In this document: in pieces, positions 1-18,348 of the stretch
Layout of the letters: every line of letters starts with the position of its first letter
Numbering within the stretch: position 1 is the stretch's first letter
IMG/VR virus record: IMGVR_UViG_3300045988_138873
DNA: 18,348 bases
Strand: one strand, 5' to 3'
Origin: a virus
The notes under the pieces: generated by a model
Databases searched by the model: none
What the model saw: the letters and a program-made list of their open reading frames with translations, nothing else
Told to the model about the DNA's origin: nothing
Made by a program: the position numbers and the translations under genes

Positions 1-99
1 CCGCAACCGGCTTTCGCCGTCCAGAACTTTCGCTCTGGCGCAGACTATATCTTCATCCTCAAGAAATCTCTTCCGTCCGAAAATATTATGCATTTCGGA
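1..99. repeat. 99-bp exact terminal direct repeat, copy 1 (identical to 18250-18348)
   Basis: Read directly: nt 1-99 equal nt 18250-18348. The repeat sits exactly at both window ends and inside a ribozyme, so it is best explained as a k-mer-length assembly overlap of a circular path with unit length 18,249 bp. Confidence 0.95.
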
Positions 100-111
100 T
101 AATTCTCTATT

Positions 112-140
112 ATATTACCTTCTTTTTCCTTCTTCGTCAA
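112..140 (-). promoter_or_regulatory. Possible sigma70-type promoter inside the P8 extension of the ribozyme, facing tnpB
   Basis: Minus strand: TTGACG (140-135), 17-nt spacer, TAATAT (117-112). Sequence match only. Confidence 0.25.
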
Positions 141-439
141 GAGGTAATTTGAGATTTCTTGATGGGATGCCCACCACTTCGGACAGCCTATCGCTTGCCG
201 TCCTACTCCCTTCCGGGATAGTCGTTGAACCTTCCTCTCTTCGAGGCTTGGCTGCTGATTGCCCATTATTCTAGCGTTTAGGTTTTAACCTTGCGCTATG
301 CAACCGCTTCTTTCTACTTTCGTCGCCGTCACGCTTAGAGTTGTTCACTCTTACGTTGTGGCGCGGTTGCCTTTAGGGGTTCCCAGCACTTCAATGGGTT
401 TTATTTTTTCGAACATATTCCTATGAACGTGACCTGTAT

Positions 440-3097
440 TTACAAGTCTGAGGTAAAATCATCAAGCGACGTTTGGGTAGCCTTATAGGTGTAATTAGTT
501 CCGTCAAAACTGCCACTCGTTAGGTTGAGATCAATCGACTTGCCAGATACAGCGCCTGTCGCTCCACCGACTACGGCGTCCATACCTCTTTCTTCGCCGC
601 TGCCAATTCCAGCAAAAGCCTTTGCGGCTTCATGGCACTGTTTGGCGAACGATGCTACGCTCGACTTACCCGACGCCATGTTCTGATAAATGGACTGTGC
701 CGCGTTATAAGCAGCAGCGTTGAAATTCCCATTGACATCCGTACAAACTTCCATCGCCACACGGTCAAACTCTTCCGTGTTTTGAGCCATAGCAGCAGCC
801 GCAAGACGCCATGCATCTGCTTCTTGTACTCCGTTGTCAATGAGTGCTTGAGCCATTATGTTACCGGTATTGATACGATACTCAGCGACTTCCTTGGAAA
901 TTTGTCCCTCGCCTTCGCCAACATTTTGTGCAATTTCAAGTTCTGCCTGAGCAAACGCCATTTGGCCTTCAAGAGATGCTTTCTTAGCCTGAAGGTCTGC
1001 AATCTCCGCATCAATGGCCTCATTAACCTGTTCTTGTTTCCCGCTGATAAACGCATCAACGACGCCCTGATTCAACGTCACCTGACCATCAGCGGATACG
1101 GTTGCATTCGCAAGAATCTCAGGGTACGCCTCAGCAAACTCACGCGCCTTGTCGGCAGAAATTGTGAAGCTGTCCGCGACTGTATTCTGAATCGACGCGA
1201 TTTGCTCAAGTACACCAGAGCATGTGTCAAAAGTGCTTAGGATACCAGACCACGGACTCGGCATATTATTCAACAGCCGGTTATTCTCGGCAATCGCCGC
1301 ATTGTTCTTTGCGATTTCGGCTGTGTAGTTCGAAATCGCAAGAGTGCTGCGTTTATCATTGGCATTTTGCAGGTTATCAATATGCTTTTGAAGTTCATCA
1401 TTGGATGCCTCAAGCGCAGCAGTTTCTTCTCTAATAGCATCTGCCTCAGCTTTATTCGCAGCATCAACAGACGTAGACGATGCCTCGCTCATCACATCCT
1501 TGACGGTGGACATGGCAGCGCTGAAGGAGTCAGTCGCGTTCGTTGCATTTTGAGCCGCATCGGCATATTGCGGGAATGTCTGATTGGCCACTTCAGTCAG
1601 ATATTGCTTATACTGATCTGACACACCCGCCATGTTGTTGATAGACGCGATAAAGGAATCAAACGTCTCTTGAGAATTGACCGTCGCTTCCTTGAGCATA
1701 TCAGATATTTTAATGACAGCATCATTCTGCATCTGATTTGCAACCGCCGAATTATACTCATCAACGATACTTTGATAGAGATCAATTTTACTCTGGATAT
1801 CATTCAAGAGCTGAGAGTTCTCGTTCTCATCCGAGCTACGCCATTCATCCGAACTTAAAAGCGTATCTTGAATTTCTTTATAGATATCGACCATACCGGC
1901 CGCATCTTTGTTCATTGCCGCCCAGCTCACGTCAATCTTGTTGTTGACATCCAGTAGAGCGCTACCAGAATAACTCGCTTCTTTAAGTGCCTTGTTCAGA
2001 GCCTTGCTATTTGCAAGCTCGATATCCGCTCCCATAGAATACGGGTTGTCAATCGTTTTAGTGCCAGTACCCTCAGTAAGAGCACCTTGCTTGTACTTAT
2101 TTGTGGCACTTTCCACTTTCGTCTGAAGCGCGTTGGCGTTCTGTTTTGCTTGTTCAGCAGAGATGTTTTTGAGCTTGGAAACCTCGTCATCCAACTTGCC
2201 ATTCACAAGGTCAAGGTTGTTTGCCTGAGAGCCAACCAACTCTGTAATCTGGTCTTGGATGCTTCGGGCTTGCTCACGAGAAGATGCGTCAAAATCACCG
2301 GCAGAAGCAAGTTTGCTGTACTGCGCAATAAGGTCGTTCAATTGTTCGCGCTGATCGTTTGCGGCGCTAGCAACGTCATTGACCTTTTGCTCGTTTTCCT
2401 CAGCAGCCTGTTTTGCTTTTTCTTGAGCATTGCGAATCGCATTGATGCCAACAGAGGCAATCGTTGTGATGGCGGAAATGATTGCCACAGGACTGCTGAT
2501 GAAGTTCTTTGCAGCAGCCTTAACAGAAAGTGCCATATTGCCAGCCCATTCTTTAAGAGAGGCGGCGTGACTTCTTGTAGTGATTTCTGCGGCGCGTTGG
2601 CGAATTTCTTCCTCAGTTAACGCGCGCCCAAACTCAGATGTTCGAATAGCAGCCTCTATTTCAGCCTGAGTATATTTCTTCTTAGCATCCAAATTTAGCT
2701 TTGACGCTAACGTGTCCGCATCCGTATTAAGTTTTTGAGCGGCAAGAGCAATGCCTTCTTCGGTAATCGTCTGAGTTGCTTTTAGTCTTTGACTGACAGC
2801 AGCCTTTTCTTCATTAGTAAGTGCCGATTGCCCAAGCAAAACATCTCTTTGCTTTTCGGATAATCCCGCTAAAGCAGCCGTATATGCATTGATCTTGCCA
2901 TCGTCCAATTCTGGTTCCGACGCACTTGGAAATTGGACGATATTATCTTCGTTGCCTCCTAGAGTGTTTGCGCTTGCCGCCTGTTGCTTCTCATATTCGT
3001 TATTTAACGCTTCAATTTCTTGCTTTGCTTGTCGCAGAACTTTGAACGATGCCAAATCATACAAACATAATGCCGACCAAACATTATATTGATTCAA
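440..3097 (-). CDS. Tape-measure-like coiled-coil tail protein, 885 aa as written; proposed exon 1 (ends at 445) of an IStron-interrupted gene
   Basis: Long Ala/Gln/Glu-rich helical ORF with a hydrophobic segment (FISSPVAIISAITTIASVGINAI) and a Gly-rich C-terminus, as in phage tape-measure proteins. The start is uncertain: TTG at 3097 has no SD, and there is no in-frame ATG before codon 188. The TAA stop (442-440) lies 3 nt inside the predicted intron. Confidence 0.6.
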   Translation of the reverse strand: MNQYNVWSALCLYDLASFKVLRQAKQEIEALNNEYEKQQAASANTLGGNEDNIVQFPSASEPELDDGKINAYTAALAGLSEKQRDVLLGQSALTNEEKAAVSQRLKATQTITEEGIALAAQKLNTDADTLASKLNLDAKKKYTQAEIEAAIRTSEFGRALTEEEIRQRAAEITTRSHAASLKEWAGNMALSVKAAAKNFISSPVAIISAITTIASVGINAIRNAQEKAKQAAEENEQKVNDVASAANDQREQLNDLIAQYSKLASAGDFDASSREQARSIQDQITELVGSQANNLDLVNGKLDDEVSKLKNISAEQAKQNANALQTKVESATNKYKQGALTEGTGTKTIDNPYSMGADIELANSKALNKALKEASYSGSALLDVNNKIDVSWAAMNKDAAGMVDIYKEIQDTLLSSDEWRSSDENENSQLLNDIQSKIDLYQSIVDEYNSAVANQMQNDAVIKISDMLKEATVNSQETFDSFIASINNMAGVSDQYKQYLTEVANQTFPQYADAAQNATNATDSFSAAMSTVKDVMSEASSTSVDAANKAEADAIREETAALEASNDELQKHIDNLQNANDKRSTLAISNYTAEIAKNNAAIAENNRLLNNMPSPWSGILSTFDTCSGVLEQIASIQNTVADSFTISADKAREFAEAYPEILANATVSADGQVTLNQGVVDAFISGKQEQVNEAIDAEIADLQAKKASLEGQMAFAQAELEIAQNVGEGEGQISKEVAEYRINTGNIMAQALIDNGVQEADAWRLAAAAMAQNTEEFDRVAMEVCTDVNGNFNAAAYNAAQSIYQNMASGKSSVASFAKQCHEAAKAFAGIGSGEERGMDAVVGGATGAVSGKSIDLNLTSGSFDGTNYTYKATQTSLDDFTSDL

Positions 3098-3167: not shown

Positions 3168-3866
3168 ATGGCATTCGAAGATACAATTCGCAATATGAAG
3201 AAACGGCTTCAGGGAAATGTCTGCCCAAATTGCGGCATTCCTTGGAAAAGTGCGCCAAGTTGTCCAAACTGCAAATATTCGCCGAAAATTGTTGCTTGCC
3301 CAAAATGTGCAACAATAAAAGCATGCATTTCAATCTCTGAAAAAAGAAAATTATTGACAAACCCAGAGGCGGTAGATTCGGCAGAAAGCTGTGAATGCAA
3401 CGTCTGTTATGCGGAATTAAATATGACGAACGAAGAATATGACAAAATAAAATGGGATAATCTCAAAGTAGAAACATGGTGGCCAGCGAAATGGAAAGCA
3501 TCTGCCTGTACATTATCAGACTTTGTTGCTGCACGGTATGCTTTTGAAAACTATTTTGACAAGTCGCAATTAGACACCAGCCTATCTAAATACAAGTCCA
3601 ACTACGCCAATATGTTCCCTGAATCGGAAGAAAGTATAGAGTATTTTAGAAGCGTTGGTGGCATTGAAAACTATTACTTTCCTCAGAACACAGATCATAC
3701 TACTTCTCGTCCCAAGCACGTTCCCAAATGCCCCATCTGCGGATCTGAAAATCTCACGCGACTGACCACGATGAAGAAGGCTGCAAAAATAGCGCTGGTT
3801 GGAATTTATGGACTTGGCGATTGTGGGAAGACGTGGAAATGCAATAATTGTGGCAGTAAGTTTTGA
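3168..3866 (+). CDS. Multi-zinc-ribbon protein, unknown function (only convincing plus-strand gene)
   Basis: 232-aa ORF with its own promoter, RBS and terminator. CxxC pairs: CPNCG...CPNCK...CPKC, CECNVC, and a C-terminal CPICGS...KCNNCG flanking the hydrophobic stretch AAKIALVGIYGLG. Confidence 0.7.
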   Translation: MAFEDTIRNMKKRLQGNVCPNCGIPWKSAPSCPNCKYSPKIVACPKCATIKACISISEKRKLLTNPEAVDSAESCECNVCYAELNMTNEEYDKIKWDNLKVETWWPAKWKASACTLSDFVAARYAFENYFDKSQLDTSLSKYKSNYANMFPESEESIEYFRSVGGIENYYFPQNTDHTTSRPKHVPKCPICGSENLTRLTTMKKAAKIALVGIYGLGDCGKTWKCNNCGSKF

Positions 3867-3919: not shown

Positions 3920-4174
3920 TTAATCGGAACTTCCATAGGCTTTCATCTTCACGTTTTGAGCATTGCCTGACAGTCTATCGTAGTTTCTTTGGATATCTGC
4001 CAATGTCCTAGCAGATTCTGCTTGCCGTTCCCTAACAGCTCGGAGTTGTTCATCAGTGACGTCCATATTAACAAAAATCTTATACCCACTACGAGTTTGT
4101 CCGACCGGAGAAACGACTTTCACAGAACGACTTTTGTTGCTCCCATTAGGCATTGATCGTGTCCGTCTTTTCAT
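3920..4174 (-). CDS. Small basic protein (84 aa), unknown function, translationally coupled to the upstream TM-GAF-like gene
   Basis: Its ATG overlaps the upstream stop as ATGA (4171-4174). Lys/Arg-rich N-terminus followed by a helical C-terminus. Confidence 0.55.
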   Translation of the reverse strand: MKRRTRSMPNGSNKSRSVKVVSPVGQTRSGYKIFVNMDVTDEQLRAVRERQAESARTLADIQRNYDRLSGNAQNVKMKAYGSSD

Positions 4175-5145
4175 TGATACACCTCCTCTTTAATATATGC
4201 AATTTCGTATACAACACGCATCATTTTTCTATACGCTTCTGACAACTGTGAAAATTCTTTTTTAATTTTTTGTGGGGAGTCTATAACAGCATCATAATAA
4301 GCAATAATTTCGATCAACCCATTAGCGCCTGATTTATGATTGATAATCGGAATCGCCATATACTGATTATAAAAGAAATCTGCGTGCCGACAAGCCTCTT
4401 TGTCTAAATTTTCGATATACTCATTTTTATCTAACTCGTTCCACCCTGCCCAATAATAATTTATAAGCATATCTTCCCATGTGCTTAGGATATACTTCTT
4501 TTTGCTATCTCGCAGACAATAAGTGAAATAGTAGTCTTTAATAAGAGGGTCATCGATAAACACAGGCTTAAATAATCCGTATAGAAACAGAGGATTATCC
4601 ATTAACGTATCGACCATTTCATCTTGACTAGCAGCGACCATCTCTACAGTTCTATTGTTTTTATCATATTCATAAATGTACACGGCGAACCCGTTAGAAC
4701 CGGAACGGTGCTGGCAGCTTTTTACAATGCCGCTTGCGCACGCATTTGCCAGAGATTCAAAAGAGGCGTCTCCGTCTTTTACTTTCTTAAACATCGTAAT
4801 CGCTGTTGACACAAAAAAATCATATGCATCTTGTAGATGTTTTTCGGCTCCTTGCAACTCCGTCCTTGCCTCGTCGTATACAGATTGCCAAAACAAAAGA
4901 AAAATACCAACAAGAATAACAAGAACAGTAATGCCCCCTTCTACCCATGATTGAGCAGTATTATTGTTCAAGCTCAACAGCGAACACAACAAAGATAAAG
5001 TAACGGGAGCAACAAACATAAATGCAACAACAAGATTAGAGTACATTTTGAATTTATGTTCACATCGCGTGAGTCTCATCTCGGGTAGAATACTGGCATT
5101 CATTTTGTCAACAACTTTGCTAGCGCAGGCATCGACCAAAATCAT
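4171..5145 (-). CDS. Membrane-anchored protein with a GAF-like cytoplasmic domain (324 aa from ATG 5145)
   Basis: The RBS AAGGGGGA lies 6 nt before ATG 5145 (the track's start at 5178 lacks an RBS). Two hydrophobic helices (LVVAFMFVAPVTLSLLCSLLSL; ITVLVILVGIFLLFW). The C-terminal region has a GAF-like pattern (FAVYIYEYD...MAIPIINHKSGANGLIEIIAYYD...), judged by eye. Confidence 0.55.
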   Translation of the reverse strand: MILVDACASKVVDKMNASILPEMRLTRCEHKFKMYSNLVVAFMFVAPVTLSLLCSLLSLNNNTAQSWVEGGITVLVILVGIFLLFWQSVYDEARTELQGAEKHLQDAYDFFVSTAITMFKKVKDGDASFESLANACASGIVKSCQHRSGSNGFAVYIYEYDKNNRTVEMVAASQDEMVDTLMDNPLFLYGLFKPVFIDDPLIKDYYFTYCLRDSKKKYILSTWEDMLINYYWAGWNELDKNEYIENLDKEACRHADFFYNQYMAIPIINHKSGANGLIEIIAYYDAVIDSPQKIKKEFSQLSEAYRKMMRVVYEIAYIKEEVYQ

Positions 5146-5260
5146 CGCGGATCCCCCTTGTTTAAGTATTACAACCATAACCTACAACTTTTTTATAAAT
5201 TGTCAATACAAAAGTGGGATTTTTCGAGATTTTTGTTATTACATACCGTCTTGCGTATCC

Positions 5261-5351: not shown

Positions 5352-5867
5352 TTATTTCCCGCCTTTTCTACGCTTTGATTTGCCCTTTCCATGAGTAGCA
5401 CCAATGGCGTTGTCGATGTTTGCCTGCGGGACAAAGTCCATCTTTTCTTTGGATGGTATCCTGAATGTGAACACTGTTTTATTATTAAAATTGCTCACAG
5501 AGAAATCACCAAACGTAATGATATCCATGCCAATAAGCATATCAAGACCTTGTTTACCAATATCAGTGTCGCACACAGGGACATCGCTTACATTTAAGTG
5601 ATTAGGGAGTCCGACATTCACCAAATAAGTATTAACTGTCTTTGTACTTGATGGAGTGCGAATATCCATCATTCCAGTTGGGACAAGATTCAGCCGTTCC
5701 ACTACGGACTCAGAAATACAAGTCGTTGTTGCACCAGTGTCCCAGAGAGCAATACCATCAACTGAGCCATCAGCACTTGAAATAGTAATAGGAGTCATCA
5801 ACCGATTACTCTTTCCAGTATATTCAAGTGTAAATGCTCGATAGACAACAGACGGTGCTATTCCCAT
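5352..5867 (-). CDS. Retropepsin-like (clan AA) aspartic protease
   Basis: Active-site motif ALWDTGATTTCIS and flap/dimer motif LIGMDII. Basic tail GKGKSKRRKGGK. RBS GAAGTGAG. Confidence 0.7.
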   Translation of the reverse strand: MGIAPSVVYRAFTLEYTGKSNRLMTPITISSADGSVDGIALWDTGATTTCISESVVERLNLVPTGMMDIRTPSSTKTVNTYLVNVGLPNHLNVSDVPVCDTDIGKQGLDMLIGMDIITFGDFSVSNFNNKTVFTFRIPSKEKMDFVPQANIDNAIGATHGKGKSKRRKGGK

Positions 5868-6395: not shown

Positions 6396-6874
6396 CAGTC
6401 ACACCTATCCTTTATTTAGATGAGCCACCTGCGGCAACAGATGGCTCATCAGGCATTCAGAGAAATGTTGTTCCCAGCAACGTCTCTCTGCCAATTTGTG
6501 AGCCGTCTGTTCCAGCAGACGGCTCGTGCGTTTGTGAAGCACTGCTTCAGAGGCTCACTATAGTATGTGTGTCACTATTTTGGTCGGCGGCGTGACCCGC
6601 CTGTAATTTTTGCGCTGTCGCGCTGATTTGGAATACCCCTTCACGACTCATTGAGCCGCGCAGCCATTATACTCTCTGAACGTTCTCATGCGAACATGAG
6701 CTTCGCTGCGGATTCCTTTCGGTTCCCGGAGTGGAATTACAAAACCACCCGCCTTTCGGCCAATTTCGGCTGTTTTGCCAATGCTCCCTCACTTGCAACT
6801 CACGCTGCAAGCTCGTTCCGTGTCACCACCAGAGCATATGTGGGCACATCATGAGAACCCGTCATTTTGGGTCT
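6396..6874 (-). ncRNA. Second, ORF-less group I intron in the 3' end of the tape-measure gene (3' boundary approximate)
   Basis: P1 GTGGGT(6880-6875)/GCCCAC(6845-6840) with a terminal U:G. P2 hairpin 6792-6811. P-like AAATTGGCCGAAAGGCGGG (6766-6748). Q AATCCGCAGC (6714-6705). P6 CTCATG-TTCG-CATGAG (6700-6685). R-like GTTCAGAGAGTATAATGG (6681-6664). S-like CATACTATAGTGAG (6567-6554). Long 3' hairpins at 6500-6525, 6452-6492 and 6421-6448. Confidence 0.6.
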
Positions 6875-9800
6875 ACCCACAGAACGAATAAATTGAACAC
6901 CAAGGACACCGGCAGATACCGTGCCAAGCGTTCCAAGGCTCTTCGTGATTGTCTGGATAACGCCAGACATATCCGTCAAGAGGTCAATTACATTCTTAAT
7001 CGTTCGCGTATCATAAAGATTCTGAGCGACACCAACCCAAGTTTCTTTCAGCGCATTCAACTTGAATACGATGGAGTCTTGGGCACGCTCCAACTCTTTT
7101 GACGCGCTGCCAGCAGAACCGGCCATAGCGTCCATAGCGTTCTCTGCCTGCTTAAAGTTTGAGATAAGTGCCGCACCGACCTGGGCGCGTTGCTTGCCGA
7201 ATAGCTTTTCGAGCAACTGCGCTTGATTTTTATCGCTGATTTCATTCCAGATATCTGCAATATCTTTCAGAATATCATAAGTAGAACGATAAGTGTTTGG
7301 ATCGTCGGCCTCAAACAAGCTGATTCCCTGATTATTATTGCTTGCTACTTTCGTCAAGTTAGCAATATCGCCTGTGATTTCCTTGAGGTCATCAGAATAT
7401 GTTTCAGTTTCCTCGTCGTAACCTCTCAGGCGCATAGAAATCGTCTTCAAGGCATTGCCGACCTGCGAAGAATCTCTCGTAATCTCCGTAGCCGCAGTAG
7501 CCAACGCGACAGTCTGCTCAAACGTGTTATTGGCCGCAGCCATTGCGGATGACGATCTAGTAAGTGAATCAACAATATCAGCATTCGATACAGCAAAATT
7601 GTTGCCGACTTCGTTTATCTTAGAAATAATTCCGTCAAGAGAATCGTTAACGTCCAACTCCTTGAACGCCTTCAGCATACTGACAAGACCATCAGTTGCC
7701 TCGGGCAAATCAAGATCTTCAGACACCGCAGAGAAAATAGCAGAGTTCCGTGACAACGTAGACGCCTCGTCAAGCGAGTACCCCAGACGTGCCCAGTCTG
7801 CTGTCTGCTGAATGATGTCCTTTGTAGACGCACCGAGTTCCTTAGCAGTCTGGTTCGCCGTATAATAGAAACTGCGATACTGCTCTTCCGTCGCATCAGT
7901 CGTTTTCTTCAGGTCAATAAGCGCATTATCGAGGTCTTTAACAACATCGAATCCCTCTCTGAGCGTTTGCCACGTCTTAAAGATAATAGTTGTTGCGCCA
8001 ATCCACTGAGAAACCTTAGCGAGGTTGTTCTTGAAAACATCACCAAGTGATAGTGTATCTTTACCAGCAGCTTTAACCTCAGCGCGGAATGCGCTTAACT
8101 GTGCTTTCCACTTTGAGAAATCGGCTTGGCTGTTTACACGGCCAAGACTGACTTTCAACTGGTTGAGTTGCGCGTTAAGACCGGGGTCGTTTTTAAGCGC
8201 GCTCCACTTTGTTTCAATCGTGATTAGGTCTTGCTTCGCTTTGGCAAGCCCAGACTCAAAACGAGAATCGGCAACATCAAGCCTCGACAATTTTTCGAAA
8301 TGCATTACCTCGGACGTGCAATCCTCTAAAATTTGACGGAGCTTTTCATAAGCGGCTATTTTGCCTTGGTCATCTAGCTTGCCACCGTTAACTGCTTTAA
8401 GTTGCCTGTCCAATTCTGCGATATTTCCAGCGAGTTCTTTTGACGGATTCCCAAGAGCAGAAAACCGTGCCTGAAGTTCCGCAACCTTTTGCGGCATAGA
8501 TGCCATCTCTTTATTGATAGACGCAACAGCATCTTTTACGCGGCCTTCTGCAACAGCAAGCTCATAGTTTTGCTGAATAGCTCTCTCGTCGTGTTGCGAA
8601 CGTGCCTTGGCGGCAGCAACCACTTCAGGCATGAGATGAGATTGGATTCTGATCTCTTGCGTGATTTTCGATTGCTCGGCCTCAACACGAGCCAGCTCAG
8701 CCGCCATGGTCTGATACTCTTCAGTCCCCTGACTCGTGCTGAACATTTTCTTTCTTATTTGTGTGGCTCTGCCACGAGCAGAAAGCAAGGAATTATATTT
8801 CTGAACGACACCTTCAACCTGAGCATCAAAGCTCTTGACCTCAGCACTCAAAGTGCTAAATTGATTAAGATATTTTGTCAGTGCCGCGCCGTCTGAAGCG
8901 CCGCTCAACTCGTTATGAAGTTTATCAATTCGAGCTGCAAAGTCTTGCGTAAGATTTCCTACATTTGAAAGTTTCGTTCTATAGGCATCTAACTTAGACA
9001 ATTCCTCATCACGAATAGTCACGACGTCTTTCGTGCGCAACTTTGTCGGAGCGCGCTCTAGCGTGCGGTATGCCTCACCAAGCGCTTTTGCATTTGCAAT
9101 GAGTTCAACAATCTCTCTTTGCTGATCTCCACTTAGCGCACCATTTTCCGCTTTAAGTGCAGCGATTTTATTGTTGATTTCTGTGACTTTCTCTCCGAAC
9201 GATTCAAGCCTAGACTGGTCAACAATCGGCTTCTGTGAACTCTCTCCGGTATAAGACGCATTGATTTTATTGATTTCGATTTGCTGTTTTGATAGAAAAT
9301 TCAAGCGAGACTGGTTGTCTTTTTCAGTTTGTCGTGCCAACGCAGCCGCAGACTTGCGCTGTCGCTCCAAATCTAGCGTAATATTTGTTGTTGTTGTGCT
9401 AATTTCCTTTGTCTGCTCGTCATATGTCTGAAAATACGAAACTACTTTGCCCGCTTGATCTTTACCTTGGATTGTGAGATTTAATAGATTTCTAGCTCCA
9501 TCTACGGACTTCTCCCATTTGCCACTCACTCTGTCGATACGAATACCCATCTGGTCAATCTGCTCGACCATGCTATTCGTAATAGACGGATCAACATGCA
9601 AATTATTTAGTTCCGCTTGTAATTTAGTGATGGAATTTTGATCTAAACCTAGTTGAACGCCGACTTTATTGGCGGCGACCTTTTGATTGATTTTTTGTAC
9701 AAACGCACCTGCTTGCGCGCTAACTGCGCTATCATCAAGCGCGATTCCGACTTTAATTTTACTCGACTGATTTACCTTGTCGGAGATGCTTGGCAGTTGT

Positions 9801-9877
9801 GCCGCTATTCGTCTTGATGACGCTTCTTCATCTGCCTCAAGCACACTTGTTACAACAACTTCCAATTCATCGCTCAT
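6875..9877 (-). CDS. Phage tail tape-measure protein (TP901-type core domain), exon 1; the track ORF runs on to 6800 by reading into the intron
   Basis: RBS GGTGGTG 5 nt before ATG 9877. Roughly 600 aa of coiled coil, then ...ADWARLGYSLDEASTLSRNSAIFSAVSEDL...VGNNFAVSNADIVDSLTRSSSAMAAANNTFEQTVALATAATEITRDSSQVGNALKTISMRLRG, typical of the tape-measure core domain, then the Gly-rich hydrophobic segment LGTLGTVSAGVLGV. Confidence 0.85.
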
Positions 9878-16672: not shown

Positions 16673-16941
16673 TCAATGATAGGCAGGTGTTTTCTGACGG
16701 TGCAGAAGTGACTCGACACGAGAAATCTGATCGTCCAATTCCTGTTTGGTCACACGCTTTGTCGCATCCTGTCCAGTAAGCGTAACATCCTTGCCGTAGA
16801 TACCATTGAGCGCCATGACTCGGCTGAGTTCGCGCTGAAGATACGAGACATACATCATCTGGGCGAGCGTTCTCACGACCAGCTTATCGACATTACCGGA
16901 AAACTCGCCAGTGTCAGGGTCGTCCGTTGTGTTACGTTGAA
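16673..16941 (-). CDS. Start-less 89-codon ORF, the proposed 3' exon of the IStron-interrupted tail gene
   Basis: The frame is open from 16960 down to TGA 16675-16673. There is no SD before GTG 16876 or ATG 16858. It begins right after the predicted right end (...CTGTTAG|TTCAACG). Confidence 0.55.
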
Positions 16942-17110
16942 CTAACAGTAACTTACTGCTTCACAGCGTCCCCGTTCGTCGTGACTACTTGGGTTTGTTT
17001 GACGCTCCACAGCTTGAAGGCGCAACGACGCCTTGAGGTTGTAGCCCCTCTGCATTTTAGGCTACATACCTGCTTAGATTGATAGCGGCATTGTAGTCGC
17101 GGTCTATCTC
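16942..17110 (-). ncRNA. Putative TnpB omega RNA (reRNA) scaffold / IS200-IS605-type right end; 5' limit approximate
   Basis: A 115-nt non-coding tail plus the 3' end of tnpB. Hairpins GTAGCC/GGCTAC (17041-17065, spanning the stop codon), AAGGCG/CGCCTT (17017-17034) and AGCGTC/GACGCT (16965-17006), and the palindrome CAGTAAGTTACTG (16946-16958). This is the location where TnpB guide RNAs are known to be encoded. Confidence 0.5.
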
Positions 17111-18196
17111 CGCGCCACATTCTGCACACACGTATACTCTATCCCTGAGCCTCAAGTCGCGCTTGATCGCACCACAGCAAGAACAAGTCTTGCTACTCGG
17201 ATAGAATCTGCCCACTTGAACAAACTCAATTCTATTCCATTCGCACTTATACTGCATCTGTCTAATGAACTCACCAAAACACTGCTCCTGAATCGCCTTG
17301 CTGAGATGACGGTTCTTCATCATCCCTGTCACATTCAGGTCTTCCATCACCACTCTTTTCGGGAGCAGTGACACAAGATCATGTGTCGTTTGGTGGATGT
17401 AATTCGTGCGAATGTTGGTCATTCGTGCATACATCTTTTTGAGACGTTCTTCACTTCGCATTATGTTGTTCGTCTTAACAAACGTATTCCCACGACGATT
17501 TTGCTCATACTTTCTGGAAATACTGCGCTCCAAATGACGTCTTTGTTTTTCAAGACGCTTCATCTTTGACGTTTTGTTGATATTGCGATATGTTATTTTC
17601 GTCCCGTTAAATTCCGCTACCGCTAAGTCTTTTACTCCCAAATCTATACCCATTGAAATATCCGTCAGCACAGGCGCTTGGCTCTCGCACTCCATGCCGA
17701 AAGACAATATCCATTTGCCATTTACATTTGAAATCCTCGGATTCGTAAACTTGTGCCCACGCCCTTGCGGCAGGTCAAAATCTGTTTTATATTTGATTTT
17801 ACCCACTTTTTCGATATGCATAAGTTTGCTGTTAATAAAATATATCCTATCGTCCTTGACCGGATACGTCTTTTTGCTACGCTTGCGACTCTTAAATTTC
17901 GGAAAGCGCGCAATCTTCTTGAAGAAACCTTTATACGCTTTATCAAGATCACGGCAAACAACGCCTAAAGACGCATTTGACACTTCGCATAACCACTCGT
18001 GCTCTCCGTCTTTCTTCAACGGCGTCAGCAGCTTTATCATATCGAATGCGGACAGATGCTTCTCGCCATTCACGTATTGCTCCTGCTGATACGCAAGCAT
18101 GTAGTTCCAAATGTATCGGCAAGCTCCTATGTGTTTCCACATTAGAGCCTCTTGCTCTTTCGTCGGGTATAGTCTTATTTTATAAGACTTAATCAT
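17057..18196 (-). CDS. tnpB: TnpB, RNA-guided nuclease of an IS200/IS605-family element (no tnpA partner)
   Basis: N-terminus MIKSYKIRLYPTKEQ. RuvC-I GIDLGVKD, RuvC-II VVMEDLN, zinc finger CSCCG...CAECG, RuvC-III DRDYNAAINL. The RBS AAGGGAGGTG lies 5 nt before ATG 18196. Confidence 0.92.
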   Translation of the reverse strand: MIKSYKIRLYPTKEQEALMWKHIGACRYIWNYMLAYQQEQYVNGEKHLSAFDMIKLLTPLKKDGEHEWLCEVSNASLGVVCRDLDKAYKGFFKKIARFPKFKSRKRSKKTYPVKDDRIYFINSKLMHIEKVGKIKYKTDFDLPQGRGHKFTNPRISNVNGKWILSFGMECESQAPVLTDISMGIDLGVKDLAVAEFNGTKITYRNINKTSKMKRLEKQRRHLERSISRKYEQNRRGNTFVKTNNIMRSEERLKKMYARMTNIRTNYIHQTTHDLVSLLPKRVVMEDLNVTGMMKNRHLSKAIQEQCFGEFIRQMQYKCEWNRIEFVQVGRFYPSSKTCSCCGAIKRDLRLRDRVYVCAECGAEIDRDYNAAINLSRYVA

Positions 18197-18249
18197 CGTT
18201 GCACCTCCCTTCGTTAGTTATAAGGGAGATTCCTTATCGGTTCGCTACA
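18197..18249 (-). ncRNA. Distal (P9-like) part of the same ribozyme plus the tnpB leader
   Basis: Contiguous with nt 1-99 through the circular junction. Contains the hairpin ATAAGG-N6-CCTTAT (18220-18237), followed by the RBS AAGGGAGGTG of tnpB. Confidence 0.55.
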
Positions 18250-18348
18250 CCGCAACCGGCTTTCGCCGTCCAGAACTTTCGCTCTGGCGCAGACTATATC
18301 TTCATCCTCAAGAAATCTCTTCCGTCCGAAAATATTATGCATTTCGGA
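18250..18348. repeat. 99-bp exact terminal direct repeat, copy 2
   Basis: Identical to nt 1-99. Confidence 0.95.

Follow-up and report, generated by a model that had tools for sequence, protein, structure and literature searches.

The 18,348-nt IMG/VR record IMGVR_UViG_3300045988_138873 (the window: the whole stretch of viral DNA that was analysed, with positions given on one strand) carries parts of IStrons, elements in which a group I ribozyme is followed by a tnpB gene. All long open reading frames (ORFs) of the window are on the minus strand. In the window Rfam detected a group I intron core (RF00028; 454-21, minus strand) with 72 bits (gathering score 50), covering the full model (1-253), and a RAGATH-18 motif (RF03064), which scored 57 bits (gathering score 44.9) and lies downstream of tnpB. 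The first and the last 99 nt of the window are identical, and because of this an earlier note on this DNA closed it into an 18,249-bp circle, in which the ribozyme would stand directly 5′ of tnpB. Comparison with related contigs leads to another arrangement. The window is very probably a linear piece of an SPbeta-like phage of gut Bacillota, with a genome of ~120-140 kb; read along the minus strand, it begins in one IStron copy (copy A) and ends in another (copy B), and each copy is a complete IS607-derived IStron without the transposase TnpA (Table 1).

The arrangement was read from two metagenomic sequences: L001, a 56,267-bp ENA contig with the record name k99_109969, and L002, a 56,224-bp scaffold. 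The whole window is collinear with L002 (L002 1530-19877 corresponds to window 18348-1, 99.89% identity), which holds two complete IStrons as direct repeats; they are separated by 18.2 kb, and their identity over 1,762 nt is 93.8%. Copy A (1,789 nt in full, L002 1166-2954) consists of a ribozyme (1179-1608), a tnpB gene (1682-2821, 379 aa) and a RAGATH-18 motif (2865-2925); in copy B (1,764 nt in full) the same parts are at 19424-19857, 19931-21064 (377 aa) and 21108-21168. The window contains the 3′ portion of copy A, which spans the last part of the ribozyme, tnpB, the guide-RNA scaffold and the right end with the 3′ splice site, and the 5′ portion of copy B with its ribozyme. The rest of copy B (377-aa tnpB, RAGATH-18, right end) lies outside the window (L002 19878-21197). 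Therefore the ribozyme at 21-454 and the tnpB gene of the window belong to different loci, an outcome that the earlier note itself had named as contradicting its model. The IStron layout that it described (TnpA-less ribozyme, tnpB, scaffold and 3′ splice site) was recognized correctly, but the ribozyme and the tnpB gene that it joined come from two copies. L001 encodes exactly the TnpB of the window and is 99.98% identical to the window downstream of tnpB; upstream of tnpB it carries other genes (YonB-, YonD- and YonG-like genes and a faint match to Pfam TerL_ATPase, the terminase large subunit), and its ribozyme is only 97% identical to window 1-435.

The terminal repeat has the appearance of an assembly product. 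At the position of the repeat the two copies of L002 have an exact run of 172 nt in common, and in the strain of the window a single-nucleotide polymorphism (SNP) follows immediately after the 99-mer. A 99-nt repeat with a flanking SNP is the pattern of k = 99 de Bruijn assembly at a unique stretch bounded by repeats, the value of k being taken from the record name of the related ENA contig. The same repeat is a break or continuation point in three other assemblies, and a 16,548-bp Logan contig is exactly the unique stretch between copies A and B. Related IStron-bearing metagenome contigs are as long as 122 and 141 kb, and two copies are present on one of these; the gene content matches Pfam families named for proteins of Bacillus phage SPbeta. 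The small circular phage-like replicon of 18.2 kb is thus an artefact of assembly at the repeat. The divergence between the copies of L002 is mosaic: synonymous divergence (dS) in tnpB is 0.33, whereas the ribozymes are 97.7% identical, and an exact run of 298 nt extends from the end of tnpB through most of the guide-RNA scaffold. A pattern of this kind suggests that the RNA parts are constrained or that gene conversion has taken place between the copies.

The boundaries of the elements were derived from the comparison of the two copies in L002. Homology between them runs to ..GTAACACAACGG (..ACAACGG), 18 nt past the splice site of the earlier note, and then stops. On this comparison the right end, the intron end and the 3′ splice site of copy A are at window 16924 and not at 16942, and the non-coding stretch behind tnpB, previously given as 115 nt, measures 133 nt (17056-16924). 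Splicing after this G restores both host genes without a gap. In gene A, the host of copy A, the junction reads ..TDLG/YDPDTGEF.. (here and below a slash marks the junction) where homologs have DLEYD, NLRYD and DLAYD; the spliced product of 129 aa is in frame and aligns without gaps to the intron-less homologs P0011, P0014 and P0016. Gene A has no Pfam or PHROG family match. In gene B, the host of copy B, the junction ..DDFTSD/LQLDISKYQQQIAQID.. lies in a product of at least 1,500 aa without a stop codon, which is gapless at this point against P0001-P0003 and the intron-less alleles in L005 and L008. The profile phrog_4211 is collinear with gene B, exon 1 matching profile positions 984-1537 and exon 2 positions 2205-2426. 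In both genes the boundaries of the intron are the boundaries of the inserted DNA, and removal of the element restores the host ORF; the ligated exons are predicted to read ..CUUGGCU/ACGACCCUG.. (gene A) and ..UCAGACU/UGCAGCUUG.. (gene B). Placing the 5′ splice site behind GG (TTGG/CT), as in classical group B IStrons, was rejected: it breaks the frame of gene A and conflicts with the sequence of the empty site.

These boundaries bear on the reading of the window as a real 18.2-kb circle with a single IStron (ribozyme 21-454, tnpB 17057-18196) in one tail gene, spliced at 16942 and carrying the guide TTCAACGTAACACAAC, which we regard as extremely unlikely. The exact 99-nt terminal overlap speaks for it, as does the 973-aa ORF obtained when its exon 1 is joined in frame to the stretch from 16941, which is preceded by a G. 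Yet the window is linear on 56-kb contigs with two full copies, and the ribozyme of the window is merely 97% identical to the one that truly precedes tnpB in L001. The relatives of the supposed exon 1 read on across the junction (..DFISD/LELDISNYQNAIAQID..) and have over 200 more residues behind it, and those of the supposed exon 2 are ~180-aa proteins with their own N-termini (..ADYELDLSCDLEYD..); these are different proteins, and the supposed 973-aa tail protein is chimeric, put together from two genes, although the sense orientation of the elements within structural-module genes was seen correctly. The 18 nt at 16941-16924, which this reading assigns to the exon, are conserved in both copies and in relatives. 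The empty site reconstructed from it has no match in IMG/VR, where the corrected empty sites do occur, and the gene calls of the window (Pfam/PHROG profile matches) include no terminase, portal, capsid or replication gene.

A related possibility is that the circle is real but minor, a by-product of recombination between the direct IStron repeats that leaves a hybrid copy-B/copy-A IStron. Direct repeats of 1.76 kb with 94% identity are substrates for recombination, and the reciprocal, deletion-type product could be seen in L009 (2498-4290) and L109 (IMG/VR 3300029219_000019), where exon 1 of gene A is followed by an IStron and an unrelated 3′ flank (TCCAGTCTAATGG); that arrangement is either a deletion or rearrangement through recombination of IStron copies or a chimeric assembly through the repeat. 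Still, we judge a minor circle to be very unlikely: the length of the repeat equals the inferred k-mer (99) and is bounded by a SNP, a result that a de Bruijn graph yields in the absence of any circle, the three other assemblies break or continue at the repeat, and the circle would be devoid of replication and packaging genes.

The claim of the earlier note that tnpB is intact, with RuvC motifs and a zinc finger, was borne out by Pfam matches and by the residues themselves. The gene of copy A is preceded by the Shine-Dalgarno sequence GGGAGGTG; its product has the RuvC residues D185, E285 and D367 and two CxxC pairs (C338-x2-C341 and C357-x2-C360), and the catalytic residues and the zinc finger are intact in both copies. 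In a search of solved structures the best match of the window TnpB was 8iaz_A (E=2e-71, full length; depositor name 'Transposase'), whose residues, with an offset of 3, agree with those reported for ISFba1 TnpB in PMC11061315. D194, E290 and D371 of ISFba1 align to D185, E285 and D367 of the window protein. The ISFba1 residues that contact the transposon-adjacent motif (TAM), N61, N62, K80, K83, N121 and N122, correspond to gap, gap, A75, G78, D115 and D116 (HMMER alignment only); all six are replaced or deleted, which is consistent with a different TAM. The ratio of nonsynonymous to synonymous divergence (dN/dS) of tnpB is 0.08-0.21 among copies, and the gene is under strong purifying selection although TnpA is absent. 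No Y1 transposase or serine recombinase domain was found among the called genes of the window, L001 and L002, in agreement with the absence of tnpA stated before. The nearest TnpBs among isolated phages, those of Clostridium botulinum phages c-st and D-1873, are 52% identical.

Relatives of this TnpB were also seen outside introns. One viral contig (L018) has two RAGATH-18 motifs 380 nt apart (4176-4236 and 4556-4615); several intron-less relatives (L020, L022, L014) have tRNA gene arrays beside tnpB, and in one metagenome-assembled genome (L115 2133-2231) a skipping-rope RNA is located upstream of tnpB.

A structured RNA behind tnpB had been expected, and the RAGATH-18 match and compensatory changes agree with it. 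In the predicted guide-RNA (omegaRNA/reRNA) scaffold of copy A the first element from the 5′ side is stem-loop 1 (SL1), which has an overlap with the stop codon of tnpB; SL2, whose loop GUCGUUGC is invariant, RAGATH-18 and a terminal hairpin come next, and the scaffold closes with ACAACGG, a tail whose last G is at once the terminal G of the intron and the right end of the transposon. For a 10-sequence alignment RNAalifold predicted 39 base pairs, 13 of them with compensatory changes, and the arms of the terminal hairpin covary (GUUAC/GUAAC, GUUAG/CUAAC, GUUUGG/CCAAAC, GUUCU/AGAAC). In both copies and in 10 relatives the right end is formed by this hairpin and ACA(A/G)CGG, with the flanks diverging right after it. 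The right end of copy A thus does carry a guide-RNA scaffold, as the earlier note had it, but the guide was misassigned: the segment at 16941-16926 comprises the end of the hairpin loop, the 3′ arm and part of the tail, which is conserved scaffold in both copies and in relatives. By analogy with the systems of PMC11061315 and PMC10690162, the guide would be formed by the first 20 nt of the 3′ exon, where the copies start to diverge; for copy B this predicted guide is TGCAGCTTGATATTTCAAAA, outside the window. The SL2 loop CGUUG is complementary to CAACG of the tail, and the L004 variant CAGCG keeps the pairing through G-U. The resulting SL2-tail pseudoknot, a parallel to the published PK-1/PK-2, stays a prediction because invariant bases give no covariation.

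RF00028 gave 72-76 bits with the ribozymes of both copies; for those of 10 related viral contigs the range was 70-85 bits. Their target was deduced from the 5′ flanks at six or seven independent sites (TTGGCT, CAGACT, GTGGCT, ATGGCT, GCGGCT, ATGGCT, ATGGCT), in which the last base is always T; the family consensus read from these flanks is TGRCT. One further copy (L098/L160, perhaps ATGACT) was excluded from the site count, as its 5′ boundary could not be fixed and no right end was found. The target motif doubles as the 5′ strand of P1, in which (U)GRCU is paired to AGGUC(A), the conserved internal guide, and its final U forms a U-G wobble. In copy B GACU/UGU pairs with ACAGGUC, and in L008 the sequence shows an exon C matched by the compensating internal guide GGUCG. 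P1 is adapted to the target motif, and the intact ribozyme model match, the U-G wobble of P1 and the compensation in L008 lend indirect support to predicted self-splicing of the transcripts. No convincing P10 pairing was found between the internal guide and the 3′ exons.

In front of the conserved internal guide the left end occurs in two unrelated forms, without a conserved palindrome or hairpin. The long form (29 nt, L002 1166-1194) is TAGATGTAACACACGATACGTGTTGCAAT, with the hairpin AACACG-AUA-CGUGUU, and within it the right-end motif GTAACACA recurs as an 8-nt copy; the short form consists of TGTAAATRC (9 nt, window 436-444). GUGUU beside the internal guide has the potential to pair with AACAC just 5′ of the 3′ splice site.

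We assign the elements to the IS607-type IStrons, and not to the IS200/IS605 (CdISt1-like) family proposed earlier, because they carry RAGATH-18 and a CGG right end, their TnpB has its best match in 8iaz, and c-st and D-1873 are the nearest isolate relatives; on these sequence features the assignment is clear. RAGATH-18 is reported to co-occur only with IS607-type TnpBs and is the core of their reRNA, which consists of a 187-nt scaffold and a 20-nt guide; the measured TAMs of RAGATH-18-linked TnpBs are AGGAG or GAGGG (PMC11061315). Group B IStrons are IS607-type elements with a CGG end, insertion after GG-ending sites and splicing after G (Tourasse et al. 2014, PMC4227781), and CbISt3 and CbISt4 of phages c-st and D-1873 have already been listed among them (PMC4227781). 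Like CbISt3 and CbISt4, the elements described here have a ribozyme followed by tnpB in a phage genome and a CGG terminus, TnpA being often degenerate or absent; its absence is tolerated in described group B members. As in the c-st element, which ends with ..GCAACGG, RAGATH-18 follows tnpB. The targets of group B are AGGG, TGGG and GAGG with splicing after G, whereas here the target is TGRCT and splicing would take place after U (U-G wobble). Unlike CbISt3 and CbISt4, the elements have an SPbeta-like gut phage as host, and in each genome several diverged copies occupy structural-module genes. With the Rfam group I model the c-st ribozyme went undetected even at E<=0.1, whereas the elements here gave 72-85 bits; Rfam-based screens would therefore overlook such IStrons. 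In the c-st sequence (L159 1330-1420, upstream of CST113) group I-like motifs can be seen (..ctgctggaaactcctaaagc..).

Other known systems are similar in part. CboIStron and CseIStron also have splice sites that coincide with the transposon ends, and a scaffold ending with ..CGG (PMC10690162; PMC13521648). In these elements a pseudoknot between SL2 and the 3′ tail overlaps the recognition of the 3′ splice site, and splicing and guide-RNA formation were found by experiment to be mutually exclusive (Zedaveinyte et al., PMC10690162; PMC13521648); the competition between guide-RNA formation and use of the 3′ splice site suggested in the earlier note is thus published behaviour of such elements. 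They differ in having or using a serine-recombinase TnpA and in the TAM TGGG, whereas the elements here have TGRCT as their motif, no TnpA and junctions without the GG/GG symmetry. With the ISFba1 system (PMC11061315) the elements have in common the aligned RuvC residues and a RAGATH-18 core downstream of the ORF; unlike ISFba1 (TAM AGGAG), they differ at the six TAM-contact positions, and their scaffold is ~150 instead of 187 nt long, overlaps the tnpB stop and is embedded in an intron. CdISt1 of Clostridioides difficile (group A) resembles them in the order of ribozyme, tnpB and a right end that is the 3′ splice site, and in its U-ending target; the TTGAT target, the TCAG 3′ end, Y1-type ends with subterminal palindromes and an IS605-type guide RNA are features of CdISt1 only. 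None of the group A marks (TTGAT/ATTAT/TTTAT target, TCAG end, Y1_Tnp domain, subterminal palindromes) was found here. A Y1-type (IS200/IS605) mechanism was considered for the pentanucleotide target without duplication and was rejected in view of the missing left-end hairpin, RAGATH-18 and the CGG end.

In IMG/VR ten viral contigs (17-110 kb) have the same order of ribozyme, tnpB and RAGATH-18, with TnpBs 67-99% identical to that of the window, and metagenome contigs add further IStron copies. Empty sites matching the predicted junctions were found for sites 1-4. The empty site of copy A, CCTTGGCT/ACGACCCTGACACTGG (also given as CCTTGGCT/ACGACCCTGRCAC), occurs exactly in six IMG/VR viral contigs. 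With these empty sites the junctions of the element are fixed as ..GRCT/(T or G ... ACGG)/N. Occupancy varies between related phages. In the phage of the window sites 1 and 2 are occupied and site 3, in gene B, is empty; site 3 is occupied in L005, L006, L010, L042, L043, L060, L082, L161 and L163. In contigs 089288, 094660 and 094877 an element is present at site 3 and none at site 2, and the first two of them were confirmed to be empty at site 1; contig 071880 carries elements at sites 1 and 3, and contig 074121 carries one at site 5. At the empty site 3 of the window 20 nt are identical to the 3′ flank, and so to the predicted guide, of IStron copies inserted here in other phage contigs. 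Where site 1 or site 3 is empty, the allele still has the motif, and it agrees with the predicted guide over 16 nt or more.

Site 2 presents a different picture. An exact search with the occupied flanks found no empty allele of this site; tblastn found empty alleles at L005 4671, L008 1738 and six other loci. The empty allele, TCAAACT/TGCAACTTG, differs from the occupied one, TCAGACT/../TGCAGCTTG, at two bases: G to A at position -4 of the motif (Asp to Asn) and G to A at target position +5 (synonymous), with window 445-449 and L002 21198-21208 as the occupied reference. The differences could reflect cleavage resistance or escape, co-conversion, or adaptation of the exon to P1. At site 1, the comparison of L075 with L027-L029 over 400 nt 3′ of the site revealed an occupied allele that combines the SNP haplotype of the empty type in its distal part with proximal markers (+10, +23) of the occupied type. 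Such a combination, seen in one case, would be in line with homing in which the tract of co-conversion was short.

These observations can be combined into the following scheme. Some primary transcripts would self-splice and restore the phage ORF, as inferred from published work on IS607 IStrons. Others would fold the scaffold, bind TnpB and retain ~16-20 nt of the 3′ exon as a guide; the pseudoknot between the SL2 loop and the tail would hide the 3′ splice site and make the two fates of the RNA mutually exclusive. TnpB, presumably in a TAM- and guide-dependent manner, would cut intron-less alleles that have TGRCT and a match to the guide, for example in a co-infecting phage or a resident prophage, and repair from the IStron-bearing genome would copy the element in. 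RNA-guided homing of this kind is plausible. Homing by TnpA-less IStrons has been proposed before (PMC4227781, PMC13565253), where it is stated as untested. The classical parallel is formed by phage group I introns with protein homing endonucleases (e.g. td of T4 with I-TevI), self-splicing introns of essential phage genes, which spread in co-infections by cutting intron-less alleles with co-conversion of flanking markers; here the nuclease would be RNA-guided, its specificity being given by a 5-nt motif and the 3′ exon of the transcript.

Several points weigh against this scheme and the arrangement on which it is built. The linear reading of the window relies on near-identical contigs from other samples. 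Folded as a single sequence, the scaffold is modestly better than shuffled controls (z = -1.68); because this score is weak, the claim of a conserved structure rests on the comparative data. Splicing, guide-RNA processing and cleavage are steps that we infer. The TAM is deduced from the flanks only, and is unlike the measured TAMs of IS607 TnpBs (AGGAG, GAGGG, TGGG). The AGACT motif of copy B, together with the empty alleles that have AAACT and the +5 mismatch, shows that not all sites are currently cleavable. Homing accounts for spread between homologous sites and not for the first arrival at six or seven different ones. The left junction ends with CT and the right end with GG, so that no dinucleotide is common to both junctions. 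The GG-core crossover described for IS607 serine recombinases needs such a shared dinucleotide; it was considered and could be reconciled with the junctions in no register, so that it does not explain how new sites were reached.

The same junctions decide largely against ordinary IS607 transposition by a serine-recombinase TnpA acting in trans, with TnpB only restoring excised copies. This is the published life cycle of CboIStron (PMC10690162), and the CGG right end as well as the repetition of the right-end motif in the long left end would suit it. We consider it quite unlikely, however: the empty sites fix a target ending with CT and a right end with GG, and none of the 10 IMG/VR viral copies has tnpA or a remnant of it; in copy A of L002 the spacer between the ribozyme (end 1608) and tnpB (start 1682) is 73 nt, and no serine-recombinase gene or remnant was found in it, nor a resolvase domain among the called genes. 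It is also unlikely, though less so, that the IStrons are immobile passengers for which only splicing matters, TnpB and the scaffold no longer cutting or being repurposed as an RNA-guided regulator. The lineage has no TnpA, the copies are old (dS 0.33), the TAM-contact residues of ISFba1 are all replaced, and catalytically dead derivatives of TnpB are known to act as phage regulators (TldR). On the other side stand the intact RuvC residues and zinc finger of both copies under strong purifying selection, the conserved and covarying scaffold, the presence or absence of the element at precise sites (six or seven in all) in related phages, and the occupied allele on an 'empty' haplotype background in L075. 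As a tentative explanation, which we hold possible rather than probable, an IS607-derived lineage without TnpA gave up serine-recombinase transposition and lives as an RNA-guided homing intron in large gut phages, reaching new sites through the ribozyme guide for UGRCU (e.g. by reverse splicing) or by capture at TnpB breaks.

The remaining genes of the window are of phage type: a PhageMin_Tail/tape-measure protein of 1,025 aa, PhoH, a ClpP-like head protease, a RuvC-like resolvase and virion proteins. The profile phrog_4211 runs collinearly over two genes 3.7 kb apart (6800-9877 and 3064-445). Between the two there is a gene for a 171-aa protein resembling retroviral-type aspartyl proteases (5352-5867, minus strand) and the sole plus-strand gene of the window (3168-3866, 232 aa), which has weak zinc-ribbon matches. 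No hit was obtained when the full window was compared with the GenBank phage collection by megablast, and an exact look-up of the 335-aa protein encoded at 4171-5178 returned no record.

Table 1. Features of the window with their positions, strand and basis
Feature	Position	Strand	Basis or remark
IStron copy B, 5′ portion (group I ribozyme)	1..444	minus	Rfam RF00028, copy comparison
Gene B exon 1, tape-measure-like	445..3064	minus	L002 gene call; longest ORF would begin at 3097; exon 2 from L002 21198
Copy B target motif / candidate TAM AGACT	445..449	minus	Read from sequence; also P1 5′ strand
Unoccupied IStron site 3 in gene B	831..856	minus	ATGGCT + CAAGCACTCATTGACAACGG
Gene A exon 2	16673..16923	minus	Spliced ORF in frame; exon 1 outside the window, L002 1027-1165
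Predicted guide of copy A, ACGACCCTGACACTGGCGAG	16904..16923	minus	First 20 nt of 3′ exon; copies diverge exactly here
IStron copy A, 3′ portion, 1,425 nt	16924..18348	minus	Collinearity with L001/L002, copy homology, empty sites
Predicted guide-RNA (omegaRNA/reRNA) scaffold	16924..17075	minus	Alignment and RNAalifold; ~150 nt
Terminal hairpin and tail	16924..16952	minus	GUUAC-12 nt-GUAAC (16952-16931), ACAACGG (16930-16924)
RAGATH-18 motif, scaffold core	16953..17013	minus	Rfam RF03064, 57 bits
tnpB copy A, 379 aa	17057..18196	minus	Pfam HTH_OrfB_IS605, OrfB_IS605, Cas12f1-like_TNB; phrog_506
99-nt repeat	18250..18348	minus	Identical to window 1-99; ribozyme 3′ segment common to copies A and B

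Much of this biology has already been published: phage IStrons, IS607 TnpB with a RAGATH-18 guide RNA, the competition between splicing and guide-RNA formation, and the homing proposal (PMC4227781, PMC11061315, PMC10690162, PMC13521648, PMC13565253). The main value of the present analysis is corrective, in that two copies of a known class had been joined by a repeat-induced pseudo-circle, and the splice site, the guide and the host gene had been misassigned. What is new is a populous IStron lineage of SPbeta-like gut phages that lacks TnpA, has a target ending with U (TGRCT) and is present in each genome as several diverged copies within structural-module genes. TGRCT is a new candidate TAM for a compact TnpB and lies outside the descriptions of group B. 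The phage of the window, with its empty site 3, is itself a predicted target of TnpB from the site-3 copies of other phages. The series of occupied and empty alleles offers ready donor and recipient pairs for testing RNA-guided homing, and if the homing explanation is true, it would be a natural record of this process, including possible escape alleles at site 2.

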